NCBI GenBank assembly: GCA_963851405.1
Contig: CAWKPB010000001.1
Coordinates: forward strand, 279,707 to 343,706
DNA: 64,000 bases
From: an uncultured Actinomycetota bacterium
GTDB taxonomy: Bacteria > Actinomycetota > Actinomycetes > DATJPE01
Direction: 5' to 3'
Of the stretch, positions 25,461 through 42,764 are shown in pieces. Both the position numbers and the translations under genes were made by a program. The first letter of the stretch is position 1. Every line of letters begins with the position of its first letter. Below the pieces are notes generated by a model. The model was not told the DNA's origin, searched no databases, and saw only the letters and a list, made by a program, of their open reading frames with translations.

Positions 25461-27695
25461 TCAGTCGCCAGCCGATTCGCCGCTGCTCGCCTCGTCGGCA
25501 CCGTCGATGACCGGGTGCAGAGAAAGCTTGCCGCGGCTGTCGACCTCGGCGATCTCGACCTGAACCTTGTCTCCGACGTTAACGACGTCCTCGACGTTCT
25601 CGACGCGCTTCCCGCCTGCCATCTTGCGGAGCTGGCTGATGTGCAGCAGTCCGTCACGGCCGGGCATCAGCGAGACGAAGGCACCGAACGTGGTCGTCTT
25701 CACCACGGTGCCGAGGTAGCGCTCGCCAACTTCGGGCATCTGTGGATTGGCGATCGCGTTGATCATCGCTCGGGCAGCCTCGGCCTTCGGGCCGTCGGTG
25801 GCACCGATGTAGATGGTCCCATCGTCCTCGATCGAGATCTCCGCGCCGGTCTCGTCCTGGATCTGGTTGATCATCTTGCCCTTGGGGCCGATGACCGCAC
25901 CGATCTGGTCGGTCGGGATCTTCACGGTGATGATCCGGGGTGCATGCGGGGACATCTCGTCCGGCGCGTCGATGGCCTCGGCCATCACATCCAGAATCGC
26001 CAACCGAGCATCCTTCGCCTGGGTCAGCGCGCCAGCGAGCACCGACGCGGGGATGCCGTCGAGCTTGGTATCGAGCTGGAGAGCCGTGACGAAGTCCCTG
26101 GTGCCGGCGACCTTGAAGTCCATGTCGCCGAAGGCGTCCTCAGCTCCGAGGATGTCGGTCAGAGCGACATACTCCGTCGTCCCGTCGACCGTGTCTGAGA
26201 TCAGGCCCATCGCGATGCCCGCGACCGGAGCCTTGAGCGGAACCCCGGCATTCAGCAACGACATGGTCGATGCGCAGACCGAGCCCATCGACGTCGAGCC
26301 GTTGGAGCCCAGTGCCTCCGAAACCTGCCGGATAGCGTAGGGGAACTCCTCGCGCGGGGGAAGAACCGGAAGCAGAGCACGCTCGGCGAGCGCGCCGTGA
26401 CCGATCTCGCGGCGCTTCGGCGAACCCACTCGGCCGGTCTCACCGGTGGAGTACGGCGGGAAGTTGTAGTTGTGCATGTAGCGCTTGCGGGTCTCCGGCG
26501 CCAGGGTGTCGAGCATCTGCTCCATGCGGAGCATGTTGAGCGTGGTGACGCCGAGGATCTGCGTCTCCCCTCGCTCGAACAAGGCCGAGCCGTGCACCCG
26601 CGGCAGCACCTCGACCTCAGCAGCGAGGGTACGGATGTCGCTGAGTCCCCGGCCATCGATGCGCACCTTGTCGCGAAGCACGCGCTGGCGTACGAGCGAC
26701 TTCGTGAGCGAGCGGTAGGCAGCGCCGATTTCCTTCTCGCGACCCTCGAAGTTCGGACCGACCTGCTCGACGGCGAGCGCCTTGAGCCGGTCGAGCTCAC
26801 CCTCGCGCTCTTGCTTGCCAGCGATGGTCAGGGCAGCGGCCAGCGGCTCGGAAACCGCAGCGGACACAGCGGCCAAGACATCGTCTTGGTAGTCGGGGTA
26901 CAGCGGGAAGCTGCCCGTCTCCTTCGCGGCCACGTCAGCCACCTGCTGCTGAGCGGCACACAAAATCGCGATGAACGGCTTCGCTGCGTCCAGGCCCTGC
27001 GCCACGATCTCTTCGGTGGGCGCGACTGCACCCTCAGAGACGAGGTTGACCGTGGACGTCGTGGCCTCAGCCTCGACCATCATGATCGCGACGTCGTGTC
27101 CGTCCGCGGTCTCCACCACACGACCGGCTACGACCATGTCGAACACTGCGGTCTCGAGCTGTTCGTGGGTTGGGAAGGCCACCCACTGACCTTCGATGAG
27201 GGCCACGCGAACGCCCCCGATCGGACCGCTGAACGGCAGCCCGGCGATCTGGGTCGACATCGACGCAGCGTTGATCGCCACGACGTCGTAGAGGTCCTTG
27301 GGGTCAAGTGACATGACCGTCACGACCACCTGGATCTCGTTGCGCAGGCCCTTGGTGAACGAGGGACGCAGCGGCCGGTCGATCAGGCGGCAGGTGAGGA
27401 TGGCGTCCTCGGACGGACGCCCTTCACGCCGGAAGAACGACCCGGGGATGCGGCCAGCGGCGTACATCCGCTCTTCGACGTCGACCGTCAGCGGGAAGAA
27501 GTCCAGTTGGTCCTTGGGCTTCTTGGACGCGGTGGTCGCCGCGAGCAGCGCCGTTTCGCCGTCGAGCGTGACATAGGTCGAGCCGGCAGCCTGGCGGGCC
27601 AGCCGTCCGGTCTCGAAGGTGATGGTGCGTGTGCCGAAACGACCGTTGTCGATGATCGCGTCGGCGGAGGTGATGATTTCTTCGGGACCCGGCAC
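25461..27695 (-). CDS. pnp: Polyribonucleotide nucleotidyltransferase (PNPase / guanosine pentaphosphate synthetase)
   Basis: It is 744 aa with two RNase PH domains, a KH domain and a C-terminal S1 domain. A GTG start has an AGGAGG ribosome-binding site about 6 nt upstream. Confidence 0.9.
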
Positions 27696-31516: not shown

Positions 31517-34271
31517 CTAGCTTCGAGGCTTTTCTCTCATCTCAAAGGTCTCGATAACGTCGTCGGGCTTGATGTCGTTGTACGACCCGAGGCCGATGCC
31601 GCACTCGAAGCCCTCTCGCACCTCCGTCGCATCGTCCTTGAACCGCTTGAGGGAGTCGATGGTGAGGTTGTCGGCGACGACCACACCGTCGCGAATGAGC
31701 CGAGCCTTGGAGTTGCGGACGATGGTGCCACTGCGCACCAACGAACCGGCGATGTTGCCGAACTTCGAGGAACGGAAGACCTCTCGCACCTCGGCCGAGC
31801 CGAGCGAAGCCTCCTCGAACTCCGGCTTGAGCATGCCCTTGAGGGCCGCTTCGATGTCATCGATGGCCGCGTAGATGACCGAGTAGTAGCGCACGTCGAC
31901 GCCCTCACGATCGATCAGGTCACCCACGCGCTCGGCCGGTCGGACGTTGAAGCCCAAGATGACTGCGTTCGACGCGACCGCGAGGTTGACGTCGTTTTGC
32001 GTGATGGCCCCGACGCCACGGTCGATGACCCGCAAGGAGACCTCTTCGCCGACCTCGATGTTGAGCAGTGCGTCCTCGAGCGCCTCCACCGAACCGGAGA
32101 CATCGCCCTTGAGGATGAGGTTGAGCGTCTCGGTGCGACCCTCTTCGAGGGACTTGAACAAGTCCTCGAGCGTACGACGACCCCTCCGCTTGGCCAGCTC
32201 CGCGTTGCGCTCGCGGGCGGACCGACGCTCGGCGATCTGGCGAGCGACCCGGTCCTCGGGAACGACGAGGAAACTGCCCCCGGCGTCGGGAACCGAGGTC
32301 AGACCGAGCACCAGAACCGGCGTCGCGGGACCCGCCTCTTCCAGGGTATTGCCGTGCTCGTCGAGCATGGCCCGTACCCGGCCGAAGGCTTCACCGGCGA
32401 CGATGGAATCTCCGGAGCGCAGCGTCCCTCGCTGGACCAGCACGGTGGCCACCGGCCCGCGGCCGCGGTCGAGGTGAGCCTCGATCGCCACACCCTGCGC
32501 GTCCTGCGACGCGTTTGCGCGCAGGTCGAGCGAAGCGTCAGCGGTCAACAGCACGGCGTCGAGCAGCGCCTCGATGTTGAGTCCCTCGCGCGCAGAGACG
32601 TCCACGAACATCGTCTCGCCGCCGTACTCCTCGGCGACCAGCCCGTATTCCGTGAGCTGGCCTCGGACCTTCGCGGGGTCAGCGCCTTCCTTGTCGATCT
32701 TGTTGACCGCGACCACGATCGGCACGTTGGCCGCCTGGGCGTGGTTGAGCGCCTCGATCGTCTGCGGCTTCACACCATCGTCGGCCGCAACGACGAGAAT
32801 CGCGATGTCGGTGACCTTGGCTCCACGGGCACGCATGGCGGTGAACGCCTCGTGTCCGGGGGTGTCGATGAAGGTGATCGTCGGTCGATCCTCGTGCAGG
32901 GTGCACCTGGTAGGCGCCGATGTGCTGGGTGATCCCACCGGCCTCGGCCTTGACGACGTCGGTGTTGCGGATCGCGTCGAGCAGTCGAGTCTTTCCGTGG
33001 TCGACGTGACCCATGACGGTGACGACCGGCGGACGGCTCACCAAGGTCGTCCTCGTCGCCTTCGTTCGCCTCCGAACTCAAGGTCGAACGACTCCAGCAG
33101 CTCGCGGTCTTCGTCTTCGGGGAGACGACTGGACGTCGAAGTTGAGCTCGGCACCCAACAGCGTGCAGGGTGTCGTCGTTGACCGACTGCGTCGCGGTCA
33201 CCATCTCGCCCAGGTTGAACATGATCTGGACGAGCGAGGCCGGGTTGGCATTGATCTTCTCGGCGAAGTCGCTGAGAGAAGCGCCGCGCGGCATCCGAAC
33301 GGTTTCGCCGTTGCCGCGAGGAGCCATCACGCCGCCGATCGTCGGCGCCTGCATGTTGTCGAACTCTTGACGCCGCTGCTTCTTGGACTTGCGGCCGCGG
33401 GTCGGACGTCCGCCGGGACGACCGAACGCGCCAGCCGTGCCGCCGCCGCGTCCGCGGTTGCCGCCACCGCCTGGACGACCCGAGAATCCGCCGGGTCGGC
33501 CGGCATAGCCACCGCCACCACCACCGCCGGCGCCACCGCCACCCGGGGCGCCCGGCCGGCCGCCGTACGCCGGACGGGAACCACCGGAGCGCCGCCACCT
33601 GGGCCGGGCGCGTCCACCGGGACGGCCGCCGGGAGCGCCCGGGCCTGCGGGGCCGGGGCGCGTGGGCATCATGGCCGGATTCGGCCGAGGTCCGCCTGGG
33701 CGCGGGGCGCCGGGGACTCCCCCGGGCCGAGGCCCGCCGGGGCGCAGCGCCGTCCGCGGGACGGGCGAGGCGCGGGCGCCTGCCATGCGCGAGGCGGAGC
33801 TGAAGGGGTTGTTGCCGGGGCGCGGAGCACCAGCCGGACGAGGCGTGGGACGCGCTGGCGCGCTGGCGGCCGGAGCAACCGGTGCCGCAGGGGCGGCGGG
33901 CCCGGGAGTGGGCGGCGACCGTGGGGGCAGGCGGAGGGCCCGGTGATGCCGGCTGGCGTTGGCGCGGACGGCGTTGGAGGCGCCACGGGTGCTTGGCCGC
34001 CAACTCGTCGGCCGCGGGGACCTGAGGAGCTCGGGCGGTCAGCTCGGCCGCGGCCTTCTTCGCGGCCTGTCGCCTTCTTCGCCGGGGCGGCGGCGCTTCG
34101 TCGCCTGGGCGGCGGGGCGGGGAAGGCCTCCTTCAGCTTCTTGACGACCGGCGCCTCGATGGTGGAGGACGCCGAACGGACGAACTCCCCCATGTCTTGC
34201 AGCTTGGTCACGAGGACCTTGCTCTCGACGCCGAGCTCTTTCGCGAGTTCATAGACCCGGACCTTGGCCAC
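31517..34271 (-). pseudogene. infB: Translation initiation factor IF-2 (infB), reading frame broken into at least 4 frames, probable homopolymer indel errors
   Basis: IF-2 segments sit in different minus-strand frames. The N-terminal domain ([15 protein letters not shown]...) is on ORF 33669..34271. The G/P-rich linker plus [18 protein letters not shown]...SVNDDTL is on 32770..33786. [19 protein letters not shown] is on 33038..34003. The G1 motif [17 protein letters not shown]...GAYQV is on 32679..33044. [12 protein letters not shown] through the C-terminus is on 31517..32938. Confidence 0.8.
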
Positions 34272-36368: not shown

Positions 36369-36893
36369 ATGCCCCGGGAGACGACGCGCCGCGAGGTGCT
36401 CGCGGCCCTGGGGCTCGGGGCAGCCGCTGTTGGGATGCTCGGCCTTTCTGGATGCACCAGCACAGCCGCGCCACCGCCGCCGGATCCTGTCAAGTCTGCC
36501 GATGAGGTTGAGGCGGCGTCTGCGGCGGCCCGCGAATCGCTGCTCGCAGAGCGGGCGGCCGGTACGGCTCGAAAGCACCCCACGCTCACCTCGGCCACCG
36601 ACGCTTCGCAAGCGCATGCCGCCCACGCCGCCGCCCTGGAGGACGTGGCGCGCGTCGTCGGCGGCCCAAGCGCGAGCGGGTCCCCGACGACCGGCCCGAC
36701 ACTGATCCCGGCCAGCCGTCAACGAGCCGCAACGGCGCTCGCGAACGCCGAACTTGCCGTGGCAGAGGCTCACCAGCAAGCACTCGTGCGGACCGGAGTG
36801 ACCGGGGGGCTCGCTGCCTTGCTGGCCTCCGTGGCCGCTTCCGACGCGTCGTTCGCTCGCTCAATCGCTGGGCAGGGACGAGCGTCCGGGTGA
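36369..36893 (+). CDS. Tat-signal lipoprotein, Ala-rich (Rv2843-like conserved hypothetical)
   Basis: An RREVLAALGLGAAA twin-arginine signal is followed by an LSGC lipobox. It is translationally coupled by a 4-nt overlap to the next gene. Confidence 0.55.
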   Translation: MPRETTRREVLAALGLGAAAVGMLGLSGCTSTAAPPPPDPVKSADEVEAASAAARESLLAERAAGTARKHPTLTSATDASQAHAAHAAALEDVARVVGGPSASGSPTTGPTLIPASRQRAATALANAELAVAEAHQQALVRTGVTGGLAALLASVAASDASFARSIAGQGRASG

Positions 36894-37309
36894 CCCCAAC
36901 CGAGCACTCCAGGTCGTTCTTTCGGGGCGAGCATGCGGCCGTGTACGGCTACGGGGTGGTGGGCGCCCGACTCCGAGGGCAGCCGGACGAGGCGGCCGCG
37001 CGAAGGTCGTACACGCGGCACACCGCGCGCCGGGATCGGGTTGCTGCCCTGATCGTCGCCGCCGGCGACACCCCGGTACCGGCAGCCCCGGCGTACAACC
37101 TGGGAGGTCCCGTGACCGCAGCGGACCAGGCCCGTCGGTTGGCGGCCGAGGTCGAGGCTGCGCTGGTGGCGCCCTACCTCGACCTGGTGGCCGCGACCGA
37201 GGGCCGGGAGCGCTCGGCGCCTGCCGCCTGGGCGAGCGAGGCCGCGTCGCAGAGCGTGTTTTGGGGGGCGGAGCCCACCCCGTTCCCTGGCCTGAGCAAT
37301 CAAGCCTGA
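36890..37309 (+). CDS. DUF4439 ferritin-like domain protein (Rv2844-like)
   Basis: It is 139 aa with the FRGEHAAVYGYGVVGARL motif typical of DUF4439. Confidence 0.55.
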   Translation: MTPTEHSRSFFRGEHAAVYGYGVVGARLRGQPDEAAARRSYTRHTARRDRVAALIVAAGDTPVPAAPAYNLGGPVTAADQARRLAAEVEAALVAPYLDLVAATEGRERSAPAAWASEAASQSVFWGAEPTPFPGLSNQA

Positions 37310-38052
37310 GCAATCACGCCCGAGCAATAGAGCCTGCGTCCATCTACCGCCAAGCGTCGATGAGCGGCATGAGTTCGTCGAGGGTCTGAACCACCGCATC
37401 CGGGTCCCCCTCGACGCGCCCCCGCTGCTCTGGGGGGATCACCGAGTGCGGCACCAGGACGGCCCGCATCCCCACTTCCTTCGCACCGTGCACGTCCTCG
37501 AAGGGTCGGTCGCCGACGAAGACGCACCGTGACGGGGTCGTCGACGCCCAGCGCGTCTACCACCGACAAGAAGGCCTCGGGGTGGGGCTTGGCCCAAGGG
37601 ATCTCACTGGAGAAGACCGCGGCCGTCACGAGGTGGAGCACGCCATCACGAGCGAGAACTGCCTCGTGGTAGTCGCGCGTCCACAACGTGTTCGACAAAA
37701 TCCCGACCAGTACTCCACGATCGCGCAGGCCCTCGAACACAGAGATCACGTGAGGGTCAGTCCAGGTGTGCGGGTCCCAGGCCTCCTGATACGCCGACAG
37801 GGCCTCCTCGTGTCGGGACCCGTACGGCTCGATGCCCACGGAGGTCAAGACATCGTCCAGCGTGCCTGACCTCTGATGCTCTCGGGCCTTGGCCCAGGTC
37901 AACGCTTCGGCTTCGATGAGTTGCCCGGCCAATTCGTCGGCGCGCAACGGGTCGTAGACGGTCGTGTAGGCCCGCCAGATCTCTCGAATGTCGAGGGTGT
38001 GCCAGGGCGTCAACGTGCCACCCCAGTCGAAGATCACTGCATCGACGCCCAT
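37300..38052 (-). CDS. HAD-superfamily hydrolase with an apparent single-base frameshift near 37534-37537 (C4 run on the coding strand); the authentic C-terminus continues in another frame to about 37344
   Basis: Motif I reads VIFDWGGTL. The alternate frame after ALGVDD gives SRCVFVGDRPFEDVHGAKEVGMRAVLVPHSVIPPEQRG...LIDAWR*, a complete HAD C-terminus. Confidence 0.65.
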   Translation of the reverse strand: MGVDAVIFDWGGTLTPWHTLDIREIWRAYTTVYDPLRADELAGQLIEAEALTWAKAREHQRSGTLDDVLTSVGIEPYGSRHEEALSAYQEAWDPHTWTDPHVISVFEGLRDRGVLVGILSNTLWTRDYHEAVLARDGVLHLVTAAVFSSEIPWAKPHPEAFLSVVDALGVDDPVTVRLRRRPTLRGRARCEGSGDAGRPGAALGDPPRAAGARRGGPGCGGSDPRRTHAAHRRLAVDGRRLYCSGVIAQA

Positions 38053-38057
38053 CCAAG

Positions 38058-39800
38058 CTACGCCCGGACCACCGAGACGAGATGGTCCGCGGCCTCGCCG
38101 ACGGCGACCTCGACGCGCTCTCCCGTGCGCCGATCCTTGACCTCGATGACGCCCTCACCCAAGCCCTTGCCGACGACCACGATCGTGGGCACCCCGATCA
38201 GTTCGGAGTCCTTGAACTTCACCCCGGGCGAGACACCGCGACGGTCGTCGACCAGGACCCGCACGCCTCGACCATGCAGGTCGGCGGCGAGTCGTTCGGC
38301 GGCCTCATAGATCGCGTCGTCCTTGCCCGCGGCCACGATGTGGACATCCGCCGGCGCCACCTCACGGGGCCAACAAAGACCGAGATCGTCGTACGTCGTC
38401 TCCGCGACGGCGGCGACGGCTCGGGAAACGCCGATGCCGTAGGAGCCCATCGTCACGACGACCTGCTTGCCGTTCTGGTCCAACACCTTGAGGTCGAGCG
38501 ACTCGGCGTACTTGCGCCCGAGCTGGAAGATGTGACCGATCTCGATCCCGCGTGCCAACTCCAGCGGCCCCGAGCCGTCCGGCGCCAGGTCACCCGCCCG
38601 AACCTCGGCGGCCTCGATGACTCCGTCGCCGTCGAAATCGCGGCCCTTGACCAGATCAAACACATGCCGACCGGGCTCGTCAGCCCCCGTCACCCAACGG
38701 GTGCCGTCGACGATCCGCGGGTCCAACAGGTAGCGGATGCCGCTGGACTGCTTCACGCCCAGCACGCCAGGCCCGATGTAACCCTTCACCAAGCTTGGGT
38801 GCTGGGCGAAGTCGGTATCGGTGAAGGGTTCGACCTCGGCCGGCGAGACCACGGCCTCCAGCCGCTTCTGGTCCACCTCGCGGTCGCCGGGAAGGCCGAT
38901 CACGAGGGGTTCACGTGTTCCGTCAGGGTTGCGCAGCATGACGACGACGTTCTTAAGTGTGTCGCCGGCCGACCATGACCGATCAGGGAATCGCTCGCGC
39001 GCGACAGCCACCAAGGTCTCAATCGTGGGCGTGTCGGGGGTGTCTTCGACATGCGCGGCTGGGGTGTCCGCCCACGAAGTCGCGGCCGGCACAACCGTGG
39101 TCACGGCCTCGACGTTGGCGGCGTAGCCGCCGGGGCTCCGCACGTAGGTGTCCTCACCGAACTCGCATGGCGCCAAGAACTCCTCGCTGGCCGAGCCACC
39201 CATGGCTCCCGACATCGCCGCCACGATGACGTACGGCAGCCCGAGCCGGTCGAACGTCTTGATGTACGCCGCACGATGAGCGTCATAGGACGCCTCGAGG
39301 CCAGCGTCATCCACGTCGAAGGAGTAGGAGTCCTTCATCACGAACTCGCGGCCGCGCAAGATGCCTGCTCTGGGCCGCGCCTCGTCGCGATACTTCGTCT
39401 GGATCTGGTAGATCGACAGCGGCAGATCCTTGTAGGAGGAGCACAGATCCTTGACCAGGAGCGTGAACATCTCCTCGTGAGTCGGACCGAGCAGGTAGTC
39501 GTTGCCCCGCCGATCCTTGAGCCGGAACAGGTTGGCCCCGTACTCGGTCCAGCGGTTGGTCTGTTCGTAGGGCTCCCGCGGCAACAGTGCAGGGAAATGC
39601 ACCTCCTGGAACCCGGCCGCGTCCATCTCCTCACGCACGATCCGCTCCACGTTGCGGTAGACGAGGTAGCCCAGCGGCAGCCAGGAGTAGATCCCCGGAG
39701 CCGCGCGGCGCACATAGCCGGCCCGCACCAGTAGGCGATGGCTCGGCACCTCAGCGTCCGCCGGATCCTCGCGCAGGGTGCGCAGGAACAACGTGGACAT
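38058..39800 (-). CDS. proS: Proline--tRNA ligase
   Basis: Class II aaRS motifs and an anticodon-binding domain are present. ATG 39800 ([24 protein letters not shown]...) gives 581 aa; the longer ORF to 40244 is only open antisense frame. Confidence 0.9.
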
Positions 39801-39890
39801 CCGCAAGATCAAGGGGAGCTCCTTGTGCCGGGCTGGGAGCCCCGAGGATATCCGGGCCGACGCTGTTCGCCGACTGGATAACCTGCGGTC

Positions 39891-40397
39891 ATGCCCGATT
39901 CGCCTCCCGCCGCGCCCTTCACCCCCTTCGTCCCCGACTGGTTCGACGTCCCGCGGCGGCTCGAGACCCCCCGGTTCGTCCTGGTGCCGCTGGGCGCCGA
40001 ACACAACGAACGCGACTACGAGGCGTGGACGACCAGCATGGAGCACATTCACGCCACTCCCGGGTTCGAGACGCACCGCTGGCCGCACCCGATGACGCTC
40101 GAAGAAAACCTCGGTGACCTGGTTCGCCATGAAGAGGACTTCGCGCAGCGTCAGGGCTTCACCTACACCGTCCTGAGCCGCGCTCCAGGCACAGAGCCCA
40201 CAGAGATCGTCGGCTGCCTCTACATCTACCCGGGCGATCCGCACACCGGAGGCCGCGAGACAGTCGACGCTCGCGTGCGCTCATGGACCCGAGCCAGTCA
40301 TGCCGCCCTCGACGTCGAGGTCTGGCGAGCGGTCAACACGTGGCTCGCCGAGACCTGGCCGTTTCGCCACGTGTCGTACGCCCCTCGTCCGGGCTGA
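39891..40397 (+). CDS. GNAT-family N-acetyltransferase (RimJ/RimL-like)
   Basis: It is 168 aa with the [16 protein letters not shown]-terminal motif typical of Acetyltransf_3. Confidence 0.55.
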
Positions 40398-40532
40398 CGA
40401 AGACCCCCTCGCCAGCCGCGAAAGCCGCGAAACTGTCCGATCACGGCCCTGATTCGGGCTGCTTCCCGACCTTCGTAGCTGAAGCCCGAAAGACGCCTCA
40501 ATACGGTCGAACTGCAGGTCGACACACCTTGG

Positions 40533-41495
40533 GTGGCGGGAATGACTAGGTGTCGGATCGGGGCGCGTGCGGTCGGCACGGTGGGGGCCACTGCACTGGC
40601 CGTTGCCGCGGCGCTGTTTGGAGCTGCCCAGGCGCAGGCTGAACCGTCGACTGAAGCGCCGGCTGGGGCAGCCACGACGGCACTACCGGCTCCGGTGCCC
40701 TGCGCGCCCACCTGTTGGCGCCCCGATCTCGACACGAGCTGGCAGTGGAAGCTCAATGCCCCCCCGACCAGGAAGCAGATCGACTCGACCAAGGTCGAAC
40801 TGTGGGATGTCGACGGCTTCGAGACCACGACATCGAAGGTCGCCCGGATCCGGCAGCACAGCGCTGCGGTCTGCTACCTCTCGGCCGGGTCCTACGAGGC
40901 TGGCAGACCCGATGCCACGGACTTCCCAGGAGCTGCCCAAATCCGCAAGAAGACAGGTGCGCACGAAACTCGCGAGATCATCGGCTGGAAGCTGGACGGG
41001 TGGAACGAGCGCTGGCTGGACATCCGGGGGATCAACAAGGCGGGCAGCTCGCTCGCCGCGATCATGACGGCCAGGATCGAGATGTGTCGGGACAAGGGTT
41101 TCGACGGAATCGAGTTCGACAATGTCGACGGGTACACCAACAAGACCGGGTTCCCGCTGACCGGCAAGCATCAGCTCAGCTTCAACATTTGGCTCGCCAA
41201 CACGGCGCACGCCAACGGCCTCGCAGCGATCCTCAAGAACGACGTCGGCCAGATCCCACGGCTGCTGCCGTATTTCGATGCTGCGCTGAACGAACAGTGC
41301 TGGCAGTACCGCGAGTGCACGACCAAACGGAACGGAGCCTTCGGCTACGACCAGTTCGTCGACGCGGGCAAGGCCGTCTTCGGTGTCGAGTACCAGGGAT
41401 CCCGGCAGTCCTTCTGCCCGAAGGCGAACGCGCAGAACTTCAACTGGCTGGAGAAACGGATGGCCCTGGGGAGTTGGCGGAAGTCCTGCCGATGA
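40533..41495 (+). CDS. Secreted glycoside hydrolase family 114-like protein (endo-alpha-1,4-polygalactosaminidase-like)
   Basis: A signal peptide is followed by a TIM-barrel-like domain with WQWKL, YLSAGSYE and GFDGIEFDNVD motifs characteristic of GH114/PF03659. Confidence 0.55.
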   Translation: MAGMTRCRIGARAVGTVGATALAVAAALFGAAQAQAEPSTEAPAGAATTALPAPVPCAPTCWRPDLDTSWQWKLNAPPTRKQIDSTKVELWDVDGFETTTSKVARIRQHSAAVCYLSAGSYEAGRPDATDFPGAAQIRKKTGAHETREIIGWKLDGWNERWLDIRGINKAGSSLAAIMTARIEMCRDKGFDGIEFDNVDGYTNKTGFPLTGKHQLSFNIWLANTAHANGLAAILKNDVGQIPRLLPYFDAALNEQCWQYRECTTKRNGAFGYDQFVDAGKAVFGVEYQGSRQSFCPKANAQNFNWLEKRMALGSWRKSCR

Positions 41496-41618
41496 CCGGC
41501 CACCACCGTTCTGGTGTGTCTCGCGAACAGACCAAATACCGAATCACCCTGCTGGGCTTGGGGAGCCCATGGATCTCGATGCGGTGCGGAGGACGGTCGT
41601 TGCGGCGGTCGGGGCGAT

Positions 41619-42764
41619 CTAGTCCGCGGGCAGCGGTCGCAGGTCAGGGTCTGGCGTCGCCGCGGCGAGTTGCCCGCAGGCACCGTCGATCTCGCGACCT
41701 CGGGTGTCTCGGACGGTGACCGGCACACCGTGGGACTCAAGACCCCGCACGAAGGCACGTTCGTCTTCGCGACGCGACGCCGTCCACTTGGACCCTGGGG
41801 TTGGATTGAGCGGGATCAAGTTGACGTGGACGAGGTGGCCCCGGAGCAATCGGCCCAATAGGTCGGCACGCCAAGCCTGGTCGTTGATGTCCCGGATCAG
41901 CGCGTACTCGATCGAGACGCGCCGTCCCGTCGCCGCGCCGTACGCCCAGGCGGCCTCTAGCACCTCCCCCACCTTCCAGCGGGTGTTGACCGGGACCAGC
42001 TCGTCGCGCAATTCATCGTCCGGCGCATGCAGGGATACGGCCAGCCGGACCGGGATCCCCTCCGCAGCCAGATCATGGATCCTTGGGACGAGCCCGACGG
42101 TGGAAACCGTGATGCCCCGCGCGGACATGCCAAGCCCGTCCGGGCTGGGCGCCGTCAGGCGGCGAACCGAATCCCGGACCGACCGGTAGTTCGCGAGGGG
42201 CTCACCCATACCCATGAACACAACGTTGGATACGCGCCCCACGCCTCCCGGCACCTGATCTCGAGCCAGCGCCCGCGCACCGGCCACGACCTGCTCAACG
42301 ATCTCGCCGGTCGACAGATTGCGGGTCAGGCCAGCTTGGCCGGTGGCGCAAAAAGGGCAGTTCATCCCGCAGCCGGCCTGCGAGGACACGCACATCGTCA
42401 CGCGATCGGGGTAGCGCATCAGGACGGACTCGACGAGGGTCCCATCGAACAACCGCCACAGGGCCTTGACGGTCATACCGTCGTCGCAGCTGATGGTCCT
42501 GACGGGAGTGAGCAACGCCGGTGTCAGCGCCTCAGCCAGCGGTTCCCGCAAAGGGGCGGGGAGATCGGTCCAGGCCTGCGGATCGTCCTCGAGGTGGCCG
42601 AAGTAGTGCGTGGACACCTGCCCGGCTCGGTACGGCTTCTCGCCCAACTCTTCGACGACGAGGCGCCGCTCGTCCATCGACAGATCGGCCAGGTGGCGCG
42701 GCGGCTTGGCACGCCGAGGGGAAGCAAAGACCAACTCCCCCGGCGCGGGCGGCGAGGTTGTCAC
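41619..42764 (-). CDS. rlmN: 23S rRNA (A2503 C2) / tRNA (A37 C2) methyltransferase RlmN
   Basis: The radical-SAM motif CGMNCPFC and RlmN family conservation (GMGEPLAN) are present in 381 aa. Confidence 0.85.

Follow-up and report, generated by a model that had tools for sequence, protein, structure and literature searches.

A predicted secreted GH114 glycoside hydrolase and a GNAT-like neighbor at a variable site beside proS in an uncultured soil actinobacterium

What do two plus-strand genes adjoining proS, the proline-tRNA ligase gene, contribute to an uncultured soil actinobacterium, and do they act together? The original prediction described them as a RimJ/RimL-like GNAT and a GH114-like hydrolase that had arrived as a pair, and took them as a sign that the organism makes or degrades a hexosamine polymer. 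Our analysis of the window, by which we mean the whole 64-kb stretch of DNA examined, leads us to favor, with moderate confidence, an explanation in which a secreted, stand-alone GH114 enzyme degrades exogenous galactosamine polymers and the GNAT-like gene is independent of it.

The interval between proS and rlmN

Both ORFs lie at the coordinates originally given for them, and the identity of the two flanking genes is confirmed by profile matches. On the left, proS (38058-39800, minus strand) scores 755 bits against NF006625 (cut-off 558) and is 100% identical to the database protein P0241, although the database call begins 4 codons further upstream; it is divergent from the GNAT-like gene (39891-40397, plus strand), which encodes 168 aa from an ATG start in the program-generated ORF list. 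The gene for the GH114 family glycoside hydrolase follows at 40542-41495 (plus strand, 317 aa) according to the database gene call, while an alternative upstream GTG start would extend it to 40533-41495 (plus strand, 320 aa). The public call, identical to our translation (P0121, 317 aa, 100% identity), uses the ATG three codons inside the 320-aa ORF, and a GGGTGG sequence lies 5 nt upstream of this ATG. On the right, rlmN, encoding a radical-SAM RNA methyltransferase (41619-42764, minus strand; TIGR00048, 311.8 bits against a cut-off of 290), is convergent with the GH114 gene. The successive intergenic gaps from proS to rlmN measure 90, 144, and 123 bp.

Neither plus-strand ORF is a chance ORF, because homologues of each number in the hundreds to thousands, and both show a coding-type composition with a GC3 of 0.82. 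This value is similar to that of their neighbors and provides no signal of recent transfer for either gene; the overall GC of the GH114 gene is only slightly lower (0.646 versus 0.67). A promoter and terminator consensus scan of positions 39600-41800 yielded no match, such consensus sequences being uninformative for a high-GC actinomycete. The pair does interrupt the minus-strand synteny, as proposed, but is not the only interruption: a second plus-strand segment at 36369-37309, containing a 174-aa ORF and a DUF4439 gene, also breaks the minus-strand block and is kept in relatives.

Comparison of ten related proS loci revealed that the two genes are distributed differently. The GH114 gene is present beside proS in four of them (the window, L001, L002, and L003) and absent from L084, L085, L086, L087, L088, and L006, whereas the GNAT-like gene occurs in 7 of the 10; the GH114 gene is therefore a variable accessory insertion at a site where, in many cases, the GNAT-like gene is already present. 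Its accessory character, which had been anticipated, is evident from close relatives whose proS is 86-89% identical and which have no GH114 gene. The idea of a single insertion carrying both genes, however, finds no support: the GNAT-like gene stands beside proS without GH114 in L084, L085, and L006, the last with a proS only 72% identical. Because of these three loci, we regard the GNAT-like gene as the older resident and the GH114 gene as one that came and went.

The gene order is swapped between the window and L001 on one side and L002 and L003 on the other, and the two genes are still adjacent and co-oriented in all four genomes, which could be a hint of a link. The gaps between them in these four loci, ranging from 33 to 302 bp, offer no evidence of an operon. 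Of 80 GTDB loci that carry the GNAT-like gene, just one has a GH114 gene within 10 kb, and no neighbor of the GNAT-like family across 80 genome loci is conserved above 8 of 83.

Family, active site, and export of the GH114 protein

The GH114 protein covers the entire Pfam GH114 model, PF03537 (profile positions 1-231 of 231; E 5.9e-68, 229 bits against a cut-off of 27); the accession first cited for this family, PF03659, was incorrect. A PDB sequence search retrieved Ega3 (6oj1/6ojb, E 1.5e-33) and FsGH114 (9ep6, 8e-6), and no GH191, PelA, or Sph3 chains at E<=1. The AF2 model has a pLDDT of 88.5, rising to 93-98 within the barrel, with extra strands at residues 117-119, 147-150, and 156-159. 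Foldseek placed Ega3 first (E 9.9e-24, TMt 0.87, rmsd 2.2 A, 33% identity over the barrel), followed in order by FsGH114, GH191, and PelA. From the sequence search and the structure ranking combined, we place the window enzyme in GH114 proper, nearer to this family than to GH191, GH166, or GH135.

Alignment to 6oj1, with equivalent residues counted by hand on the pairwise alignment, equates Asp193 (codon 41118-41120, plus strand; FDNVDGY motif) with Ega3 Asp189, and Glu251 (codon 41292-41294, plus strand; LNEQC motif) with Ega3 Glu247. Both residues are invariant in the 25 homologues aligned, and the Ega3 pair has been experimentally verified as catalytic (PMC12054363). As modeled, the protein is a (beta/alpha)8 hydrolase with both catalytic carboxylates. 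The profile search and the inspection of catalytic residues, either of which could have overturned the GH114 assignment, thus gave a full-length PF03537 match and an intact Asp193/Glu251 pair.

Eight cysteines are conserved in the protein (residues 54, 58, 111, 182, 253, 259, 292, and 316), at least six of which align with cysteines of Ega3, and a conserved disulfide pattern has been reported for GH114 (PMC12054363). Directly after beta3, within the beta3-alpha3 insertion subdomain, lies a 14-residue insertion, AAQIRKKTGAHETR (residues 131-144; 40932-40973, plus strand), which is confined to the window's own clade and corresponds to a gap in Ega3 and in all homologues of the Nonomuraea, Microbispora, and Gaiellales type. 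The structural study of GH114 and GH191 links this subdomain to ligand binding (PMC12054363).

The N-terminus is of the export type, with recognizable n-, h-, and c-regions: three arginines fall within residues 1-9, a hydrophobic core spans residues 10-27 (Kyte-Doolittle of about 1.8), and an A-x-A site follows. The predicted Sec-type signal peptide, MTRCRIGARAVGTVGATALAVAAALFGAAQAQA (40542-40640, plus strand), has its proposed cleavage point after AQA; comparable N-termini occur in all aligned homologues, and pLDDT falls below 50 for residues 1-16 and 27-33. The protein contains no twin-arginine motif, lipobox, or C-terminal sorting signal. A poorly conserved, low-complexity Pro/Ala/Thr linker, EPSTEAPAGAATTALPA (40641-40691, plus strand; pLDDT of about 48-74), connects the signal peptide to the catalytic domain. 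We would accordingly picture a soluble, Sec-exported, disulfide-stabilized enzyme, and the original description of a GH114-type TIM-barrel with a signal-peptide-like N-terminus agrees with the PF03537 and Ega3 matches and with the AF2 and Foldseek results. The gene is a routine accessory one whose product is a secreted enzyme of ordinary type from an established family; it does not represent a new system.

The GNAT-like protein

The 168-aa protein matches no Pfam or NCBIfam family, even at E<=1, and PDB sequence searches with it, both singly and as a 30-sequence profile, returned chance-level matches only. Its relatives are more informative: 26 of 30 match PF13302 (Acetyltransf_3) at E<=0.1, and five relatives scanned singly pass its cut-off of 25.4 bits only marginally, with 25.7-32.2 bits. 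In the relatives the match begins at profile position 1 and goes no further than about position 114 of 138. The AF2 model (pLDDT 90.7) retrieved only GNATs among its top 50 Foldseek matches in the PDB, which are partial (130-146 aligned columns) and have TM values of 0.5-0.6; the best is at E 2.6e-5, and the top matches are of the RimL/RimJ/MccE type, with 12-16% identity. On the strength of the model, the protein is a GNAT at the level of fold only, belonging to a widespread, uncharacterized family of about 150 aa that comprises at least 2,203 clusters at 50% identity (E<=1e-3); its closest match in the collection of species-representative genomes is 61% identical. The protein carries a conserved N-terminal FVPxxFxVP extension and appears cytoplasmic, with no signal peptide and a pI of 5.4.

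GNATs bind the pyrophosphate of acetyl-CoA through motif A, Q/R-x-x-G-x-G/A, in the beta4-alpha3 loop. A comparison by hhalign between the 30-sequence profile and one canonical GNAT from a neighboring locus was uninformative (probability 0.1), so the expected position of motif A was placed from the secondary structure of the model only, between beta4 and alpha3 (40290-40307, plus strand). The sequence found there is R134-A-S-H-A-A139, and the glycine-rich motif is absent from the protein; the family consensus, R-A-S-x-A-x, has no conserved glycine. The model appears to end at a short beta5 (residues 161-163), the point at which all family members stop, and does not display the complete GNAT topology beta1-alpha1-alpha2-beta2-beta3-beta4-alpha3-beta5-alpha4-beta6(-beta7). 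Because the protein, as modeled, has neither a recognizable motif A nor the alpha4/beta6 found at the C-terminus of canonical GNATs, even its use of acetyl-CoA is uncertain. Of the description as a RimJ/RimL-like GNAT, the fold is thus retained (TM of about 0.55), whereas no HMM matches the protein, which is at most a putative acetyltransferase. RimJ/RimL orthology was considered and rejected, there being no NCBIfam equivalog match to RimJ, RimL, or RimI and only 12-16% identity to RimL/RimJ structures.

Probable role and comparison with known systems

In line with the original statement, no linked biosynthetic genes emerged in the window: the 48 ORFs scanned, a subset of those in the window, include no polysaccharide-biosynthesis Pfam families and only housekeeping or unrelated ones. 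Similarly, the flanks of L001-L003 (+/-10 kb) resemble the window in containing housekeeping or unrelated families, with no sign of genes for a synthase, a deacetylase, or export. Across 80 metagenome GH114 loci, no glycosyltransferase or deacetylase recurs as a neighbor; the commonest neighbors, argC and RmuC (7 loci each), reflect lineage synteny and not function. A different context surrounds the homologues of Nonomuraea pusilla and Tenggerimyces flavus (57-60% identical), where the GH114 gene is the last after those for a solute-binding protein and two ABC permeases, and genes for a GH4 glycosidase and a PfkB kinase adjoin this operon. By analogy, such an importer/GH4/sugar-kinase neighborhood points to catabolism. 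Among the 80 metagenome loci, this context recurs only in L113, with GH4 and PfkB genes directly upstream of GH114, and in L141, with PfkB. Of about 46 informative loci just 3 show it, and the window does not, so the catabolic-operon argument rests on few genomes.

Our preferred explanation combines these observations as follows. By homology, the enzyme would be a retaining endo-alpha-1,4-galactosaminidase in which Asp193 and Glu251 cleave de-N-acetylated, cationic GalN stretches, such as those of fungal galactosaminogalactan (GAG) or polygalactosamine and of bacterial Pel. The gene may have entered the variable slot beside proS as a stand-alone accessory, within a single sub-lineage of uncultured Kineosporiales/'Nanopelagicales'-like Actinomycetes. 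The enzyme's targets would be the polymers of other organisms, attacked for nutrition or biofilm antagonism, rather than a polymer of its own in need of processing. The 168-aa gene would then encode an independent cytoplasmic GNAT-fold protein that shares the slot by chance and is no dedicated partner of the GH114 enzyme. The substrate assignment, drawn from sequence homology, is weak, since bacterial GH114s could not be made soluble and the fungal FsGH114 showed no activity on Pel (PMC12054363).

That the host itself makes a Pel- or GAG-like cationic exopolysaccharide from a locus elsewhere, and uses the GH114 enzyme to trim or release it in the manner of Ega3, Sph3, and PelA, seems unlikely to us. 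In characterized systems, GAG- and Pel-degrading hydrolases are integral to the biosynthetic machinery (PMC12054363), and only 64 kb of this genome were inspected; yet synthesis genes are missing from the scanned window ORFs and from the surroundings of L001-L003, no synthesis-type neighbor recurs in the metagenome loci, and close relatives that keep the same locus do without GH114. The window enzyme is also predicted to be soluble and secreted, whereas Ega3 is membrane-bound (PMC12054363), and homologues occur within uptake and catabolism operons. We see a similarly small chance that the fold and catalytic pair serve another specificity, for instance toward another alpha-linked amino-sugar polymer or a heteropolymer, owing to the 14-residue insertion. 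The insertion does count against a galactosaminidase, lying as it does in the subdomain implicated in ligand binding, as does the calculated pI of 8.6 for the mature protein, an overall value that is a poor guide to the electronegative substrate cleft expected of a GH114 enzyme. The sequence is no more than 33% identical to Ega3; FsGH114 does not act on Pel, and for most of the family little is known about specificity (PMC12054363). Set against this, the active-site motifs FDNVDGY and LNEQC are common to Ega3, which is specific for deacetylated GalN stretches, and all characterized GH114 members act on alpha-1,4-GalN/GalNAc polymers (PMC12054363).

The two genes might instead form a module in which GH114 frees GalN oligomers outside the cell, while in the cytoplasm the GNAT-like protein acetylates the amino group of imported GalN, or otherwise modifies the product, for amino-sugar metabolism, a reading suggested by their co-oriented adjacency through the order swap. 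We judge this very improbable, given that GH114 is missing from 79 of the 80 GTDB loci of the GNAT-like gene, that the GNAT-like gene occurs alone beside proS in three of the related loci, and that GH114 homologues elsewhere lack it; the incomplete GNAT architecture and the variable gaps between the genes weigh in the same direction. The most speculative version, a module conserved in this uncultured actinomycete clade and kept together in either gene order, in which an insertion-bearing GH114 frees cationic GalN oligomers and a motif-A-less "half-GNAT" processes them non-canonically in the cytoplasm, strikes us as a far-fetched prospect. Were it true, the GNAT fold would gain a functionally new branch in the family of about 150 aa, with its 2,200 or more clusters at 50% identity.

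Under the preferred explanation of a stand-alone secreted enzyme, the main value of this work is correct annotation. Judging by its GH114 gene, this uncultured soil actinomycete probably consumes or disrupts cationic galactosamine exopolysaccharides such as fungal GAG and bacterial Pel; the gene provides no evidence of polymer production by the organism, and nothing at the locus points to the synthesis suggested originally. The divergent clade with its insertion in the substrate-binding subdomain is a modest addition to candidates for enzymology and anti-biofilm use, because no structure of a bacterial GH114 has been solved and attempts to express these enzymes in soluble form have so far failed (PMC12054363). 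Two by-products are also of interest, namely the ABC-importer/GH4/PfkB/GH114 locus of Nonomuraea and Tenggerimyces and the large family of truncated GNAT-like proteins.

Among known systems, the RimL/RimJ/MccE-type GNATs (PF13302) come closest in structure to the 168-aa model (TM of about 0.55, 12-16% identity), but the protein differs from them in having no motif A and in ending after beta5, which leaves profile positions of about 115-138 and alpha4/beta6 unmatched. For the GH114 protein, GH191 (Env-GH191 9EP5, TM1410), GH166 (the PelA hydrolase domain), and GH135 (Sph3) have the same (beta/alpha)8 barrel with corresponding catalytic carboxylates, and are far more distant (14-15% identity; Foldseek 5e-13 for 9EP5 and 1e-10 for 5TCB). 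The PF03537 domain also occurs in sequences that have since been assigned to GH191 (PMC12054363).

Closer likenesses are found within GH114. The endo-alpha-1,4-polygalactosaminidase of Pseudomonas sp. 881, likened here by its description only, is the one partly characterized bacterial member, endo-acting and retaining (PMC12054363), and supplies the functional model adopted for the window enzyme. The proteins annotated as "endo alpha-1,4 polygalactosaminidase" in Nonomuraea, Microbispora, Tenggerimyces, and other actinobacteria match 80-95% of the query at 50-57% identity and agree in length, cysteines, and catalytic residues, but lack the 14-residue insertion; the genes of at least two of them close an operon for an ABC importer, with GH4 and PfkB genes alongside, which is not so for the window copy. 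Ega3, the Aspergillus fumigatus endo-alpha-1,4-galactosaminidase (PDB 6OJ1/6OJB), shares with the window enzyme the PF03537 domain, the catalytic Asp/Glu pair, most cysteines, and a beta3 insertion subdomain. Whereas Ega3 is membrane-bound and modifies the polymer of the fungal GAG pathway (PMC12054363), the window enzyme starts with a signal peptide of the cleavable type, is encoded by a stand-alone gene next to proS, and carries 14 extra residues after beta3.

The variable slot between proS and rlmN

Two plus-strand open reading frames (ORFs) lie between proS (38058-39800, minus strand; NF006625 score 755 bits, cut-off 558) and rlmN (41619-42764, minus strand; TIGR00048 score 311.8 bits, cut-off 290), and their coordinates and flanks confirm what was originally observed. 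The first, at 39891-40397, begins with ATG and encodes a GNAT-like protein of 168 aa. The second was listed as a 320-aa form with a GTG start (40533-41495); since the public call (P0121, 317 aa, 100% identical) begins at the ATG at 40542 and GGGTGG precedes this start codon by 5 nt, we adopted 40542 as the start of this GH114 gene. Both ORFs have the same GC3 as their neighbours (0.82) and large sets of homologues, and are therefore real genes. Beyond rlmN come cdsA, frr and pyrH, followed by tsf and rpsB.

The source organism is an actinomycete, as indicated by its nearest named proS sequences (Candidatus Nanopelagicales, 84%; Angustibacter, 81%; Kineosporiaceae, about 80%) and by an Actino-pnp RNA element (RF01688; 27752-27829, minus strand; 60.2 bits, gathering score 47.7). 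This element, the only Rfam match in the window, is located within the pnp leader (pnp itself at 25461-27695, minus strand).

Comparison of the proS slot in the window with that of nine related contigs shows that the GNAT-like gene is the earlier and commoner resident of a variable slot, and that GH114 is a patchy accessory addition. The order found in the window (proS 100%), GNAT-like gene then GH114, recurs in L001 (proS 89%) and is swapped in L002 and L003 (both 89%). The GNAT-like gene stands alone in L084, L085 and L006 (89%, 87% and 72%, respectively), and neither gene is present in L086, L087 and L088 (86%, 84% and 82%). In all nine contigs a DUF4081-acetyltransferase gene comes next after the slot, and then ispG, rseP and dxr wherever the fetched flank extends that far. 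This block, common to the relatives, is missing from the 64 kb of the window, where rlmN-cdsA-frr-pyrH directly follows GH114, which places a rearrangement breakpoint at the 3' end of GH114 (41496-41618). The original prediction had read accessory function from the interruption of the minus-strand block; a second plus-strand pair, a 174-aa ORF and a DUF4439 gene (36369-37309), also breaks that block and is conserved in all relatives, so a strand interruption alone is no mark of insertion. At its N-terminus the 174-aa ORF has a stretch similar to a lipoprotein signal or a signal peptide (…RREVLAALGLGAAAVGMLGLSGC…).

Outside this clade the GH114 and GNAT-like families are unlinked. Of 80 loci with the GNAT-like gene, only one has a GH114 gene within 10 kb, and this copy, 32% identical, is encoded on the other strand. 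No neighbour recurs beside the GNAT-like gene, and nothing was found that links its truncated family functionally to GH114.

Several genes in the region have broken frames. The HAD-family hydrolase gene beside proS (37347-38052, minus strand) occupies two frames split near 37535; its L001 orthologue aligns over residues 1-173 and then 173-235 in the other frame, with the C-terminal CVFVGD motif out of frame, so that the gene is either a pseudogene or carries a single-base assembly error. The relatives are long-read-style metagenome contigs with similar broken genes. The GNAT-like copy of L085 (5431-5921, minus strand) aligns as two separate segments, suggestive of a frameshift, and that of L084 (5421-5846, minus strand) is called with just 141 aa; decay of genes in this slot, or assembly indels there, may explain both. 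Similarly, infB appears as two long ORFs about 730 bp apart, the C-terminal part of IF-2 (31517-32938, minus strand) and IF2_N (33669-34271, minus strand); the gap may be a low-complexity Pro/Gly-rich linker that fails the ORF filter, or another frameshift.

The GH114 protein and its probable role

Membership of the 317-aa protein in GH114 is near certain from its sequence and predicted structure. Its sole Pfam match is PF03537 (Glyco_hydro_114; E 5.9e-68, 229 bits, profile 1-231 of 231); PF03659, to which it had been assigned, is another family. Because PF03537 also spans sequences since assigned to GH191, a new CAZy family (PMC12054363), we checked the placement between the two. A sequence search of solved structures detected only Aspergillus fumigatus Ega3 (6OJ1/6OJB), the closest at E about 1e-33, and the Fusarium enzyme FsGH114 (9EP6), with no GH191, PelA or Sph3 chain at E<=1. 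Foldseek, run with an AlphaFold model derived from 25 homologues (pLDDT 88.5, barrel 93-98), ranked its matches as follows: Ega3 (E 9.9e-24, TMt 0.87, rmsd 2.2 Å, 33% identity), FsGH114 (E 1.8e-15), Env-GH191 (E 5e-13) and the PelA hydrolase domain (E 1e-10). The catalytic residues of Ega3, established by mutagenesis, are Asp189 and Glu247 (PMC12054363). Both are kept, aligning with Asp193 (FDNVDGY) and Glu251 (LNEQC) by positions counted by hand in the printed alignment, and both are invariant among the 25 homologues. The original prediction was to be refuted by a profile search placing the protein outside GH114 or by loss of the catalytic Asp and Glu, and it survives both. The mature protein has eight invariant or near-invariant cysteines, of which at least six have a cysteine counterpart in Ega3.

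Three of the first nine residues are Arg; a hydrophobic core 18 residues long, an AQA site and a Pro/Ala/Thr linker follow, and this N-terminal region is disordered in the model; no twin-arginine motif, lipobox or C-terminal anchor was found in the protein. Directly after beta3 lies a clade-specific 14-residue insertion, AAQIRKKTGAHETR (residues 131-144), which is missing from Ega3 and from Nonomuraea-, Microbispora- and Gaiellales-type homologues. The insertion subdomain that houses it has been tied to ligand binding (PMC12054363).

The original interpretation as a whole, which extends to the organism making or degrading a partially de-N-acetylated hexosamine polymer, is partly supported. Regarding synthesis, a Pfam and NCBIfam scan of 48 ORFs across the window returned solely housekeeping or unrelated families (among them lhr, ftsK, rnj, dapA, thyX, pnp, truB, rbfA, infB, nusA, rimP, tsf, rpsB, a sigma factor, a response regulator, a signal peptidase and ffh), with a few ORFs left without a match. 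No glycosyltransferase, deacetylase or export genes occur in the flanks of L001-L003, and no synthesis gene recurred when the neighbours of 80 metagenome GH114 loci were clustered; the genes met most often, argC and RmuC (7 loci each), represent lineage synteny. Regarding degradation, the predicted soluble secreted architecture, the patchy presence among close relatives and the activity of the Pseudomonas sp. 881 enzyme all fit action against exogenous cationic GalN polymers, and we consider the role of GH114 as a degrader of exogenous polymer moderately likely. In Nonomuraea pusilla (L089, 367-8906; 57% identical) and Tenggerimyces flavus (L090, 938-8741; 60% identical), the GH114 homologue comes last in an operon, behind genes for a solute-binding protein and two ABC permeases, and genes for a GH4 glycosidase and a PfkB sugar kinase lie divergently alongside; the former adds a DeoR regulator and a second GH4, the latter a DUF4832 gene. 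The arrangement is that of a locus for taking up and catabolising a polymer, and both are candidate polygalactosamine utilisation loci; keyword searches of a limited set of papers found no description of one with this layout. In a metagenome contig (L113), GH4 and PfkB lie immediately upstream of GH114. Since such a context is rare (3 of about 46 informative loci) and missing from the window, it is supporting rather than decisive.

The truncated GNAT-like family

The 168-aa protein had been described as a RimJ/RimL-like GNAT. A GNAT fold is supported by its AlphaFold model (pLDDT 90.7), whose top 50 PDB structure matches are all GNATs (RimL, RimJ, MccE, Rv1347c and others), with modest scores (best E 2.6e-5, TM about 0.55, 12-16% identity). 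A RimJ/RimL-like acetyltransferase is not demonstrated: the protein has no Pfam or NCBIfam match even at E<=1, and PDB sequence searches, with the protein alone or as a profile, returned nothing significant. PF13302 (Acetyltransf_3) was matched by 26 of 30 relatives at E<=0.1; five scanned singly scored 25.7-32.2 bits (cut-off 25.4), and their matches run from position 1 of the 138-position profile no further than about position 114. The modelled topology is beta1-alpha1-alpha2-beta2-beta3-beta4-alpha3 plus a three-residue beta5, after which every aligned family member stops at the same place, whereas canonical GNATs continue with alpha4/beta6(/beta7). GNAT motif A reads Q/R-x-x-G-x-G/A; the corresponding loop here is R-A-S-H-A-A, with no glycine conserved across the family. 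What the family does conserve is an N-terminal FVPxxFxVP segment and invariant polar residues that include His52, Asp76, His80 and Cys109, and it may be something other than a conventional acetyltransferase.

The family (about 150 aa) comprises 709 clusters at 90% identity and 2,203 clusters at 50% identity (E<=1e-3), and species-representative genomes hold 589 or more of its loci, chiefly in Gaiellaceae, other Actinomycetes and Chloroflexia MAGs; some sources name its members "RimJ/RimL family" or "GNAT family." One relative, a JGI metagenome protein (P0077, 287 aa), carries a canonical Acetyltransf_1 GNAT domain (residues about 23-125) followed by the truncated domain; it resembles tandem-GNAT proteins, and could alternatively be a gene-calling fusion.

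Relation to known enzymes

The only bacterial GH114 enzyme even partly characterised, a polygalactosaminidase from Pseudomonas sp. 881, was purified from its native source and is endo-acting and retaining; no bacterial member has yet been produced in soluble form, and the fungal FsGH114 shows no activity on Pel (PMC12054363). CAZy GH114 is reportedly mostly bacterial (PMC12054363), and many actinobacterial homologues are already annotated as "endo alpha-1,4 polygalactosaminidase." The GH114 gene of the window thus adds one member to an already known family; of the two families, the truncated GNAT-like one is the more unusual.
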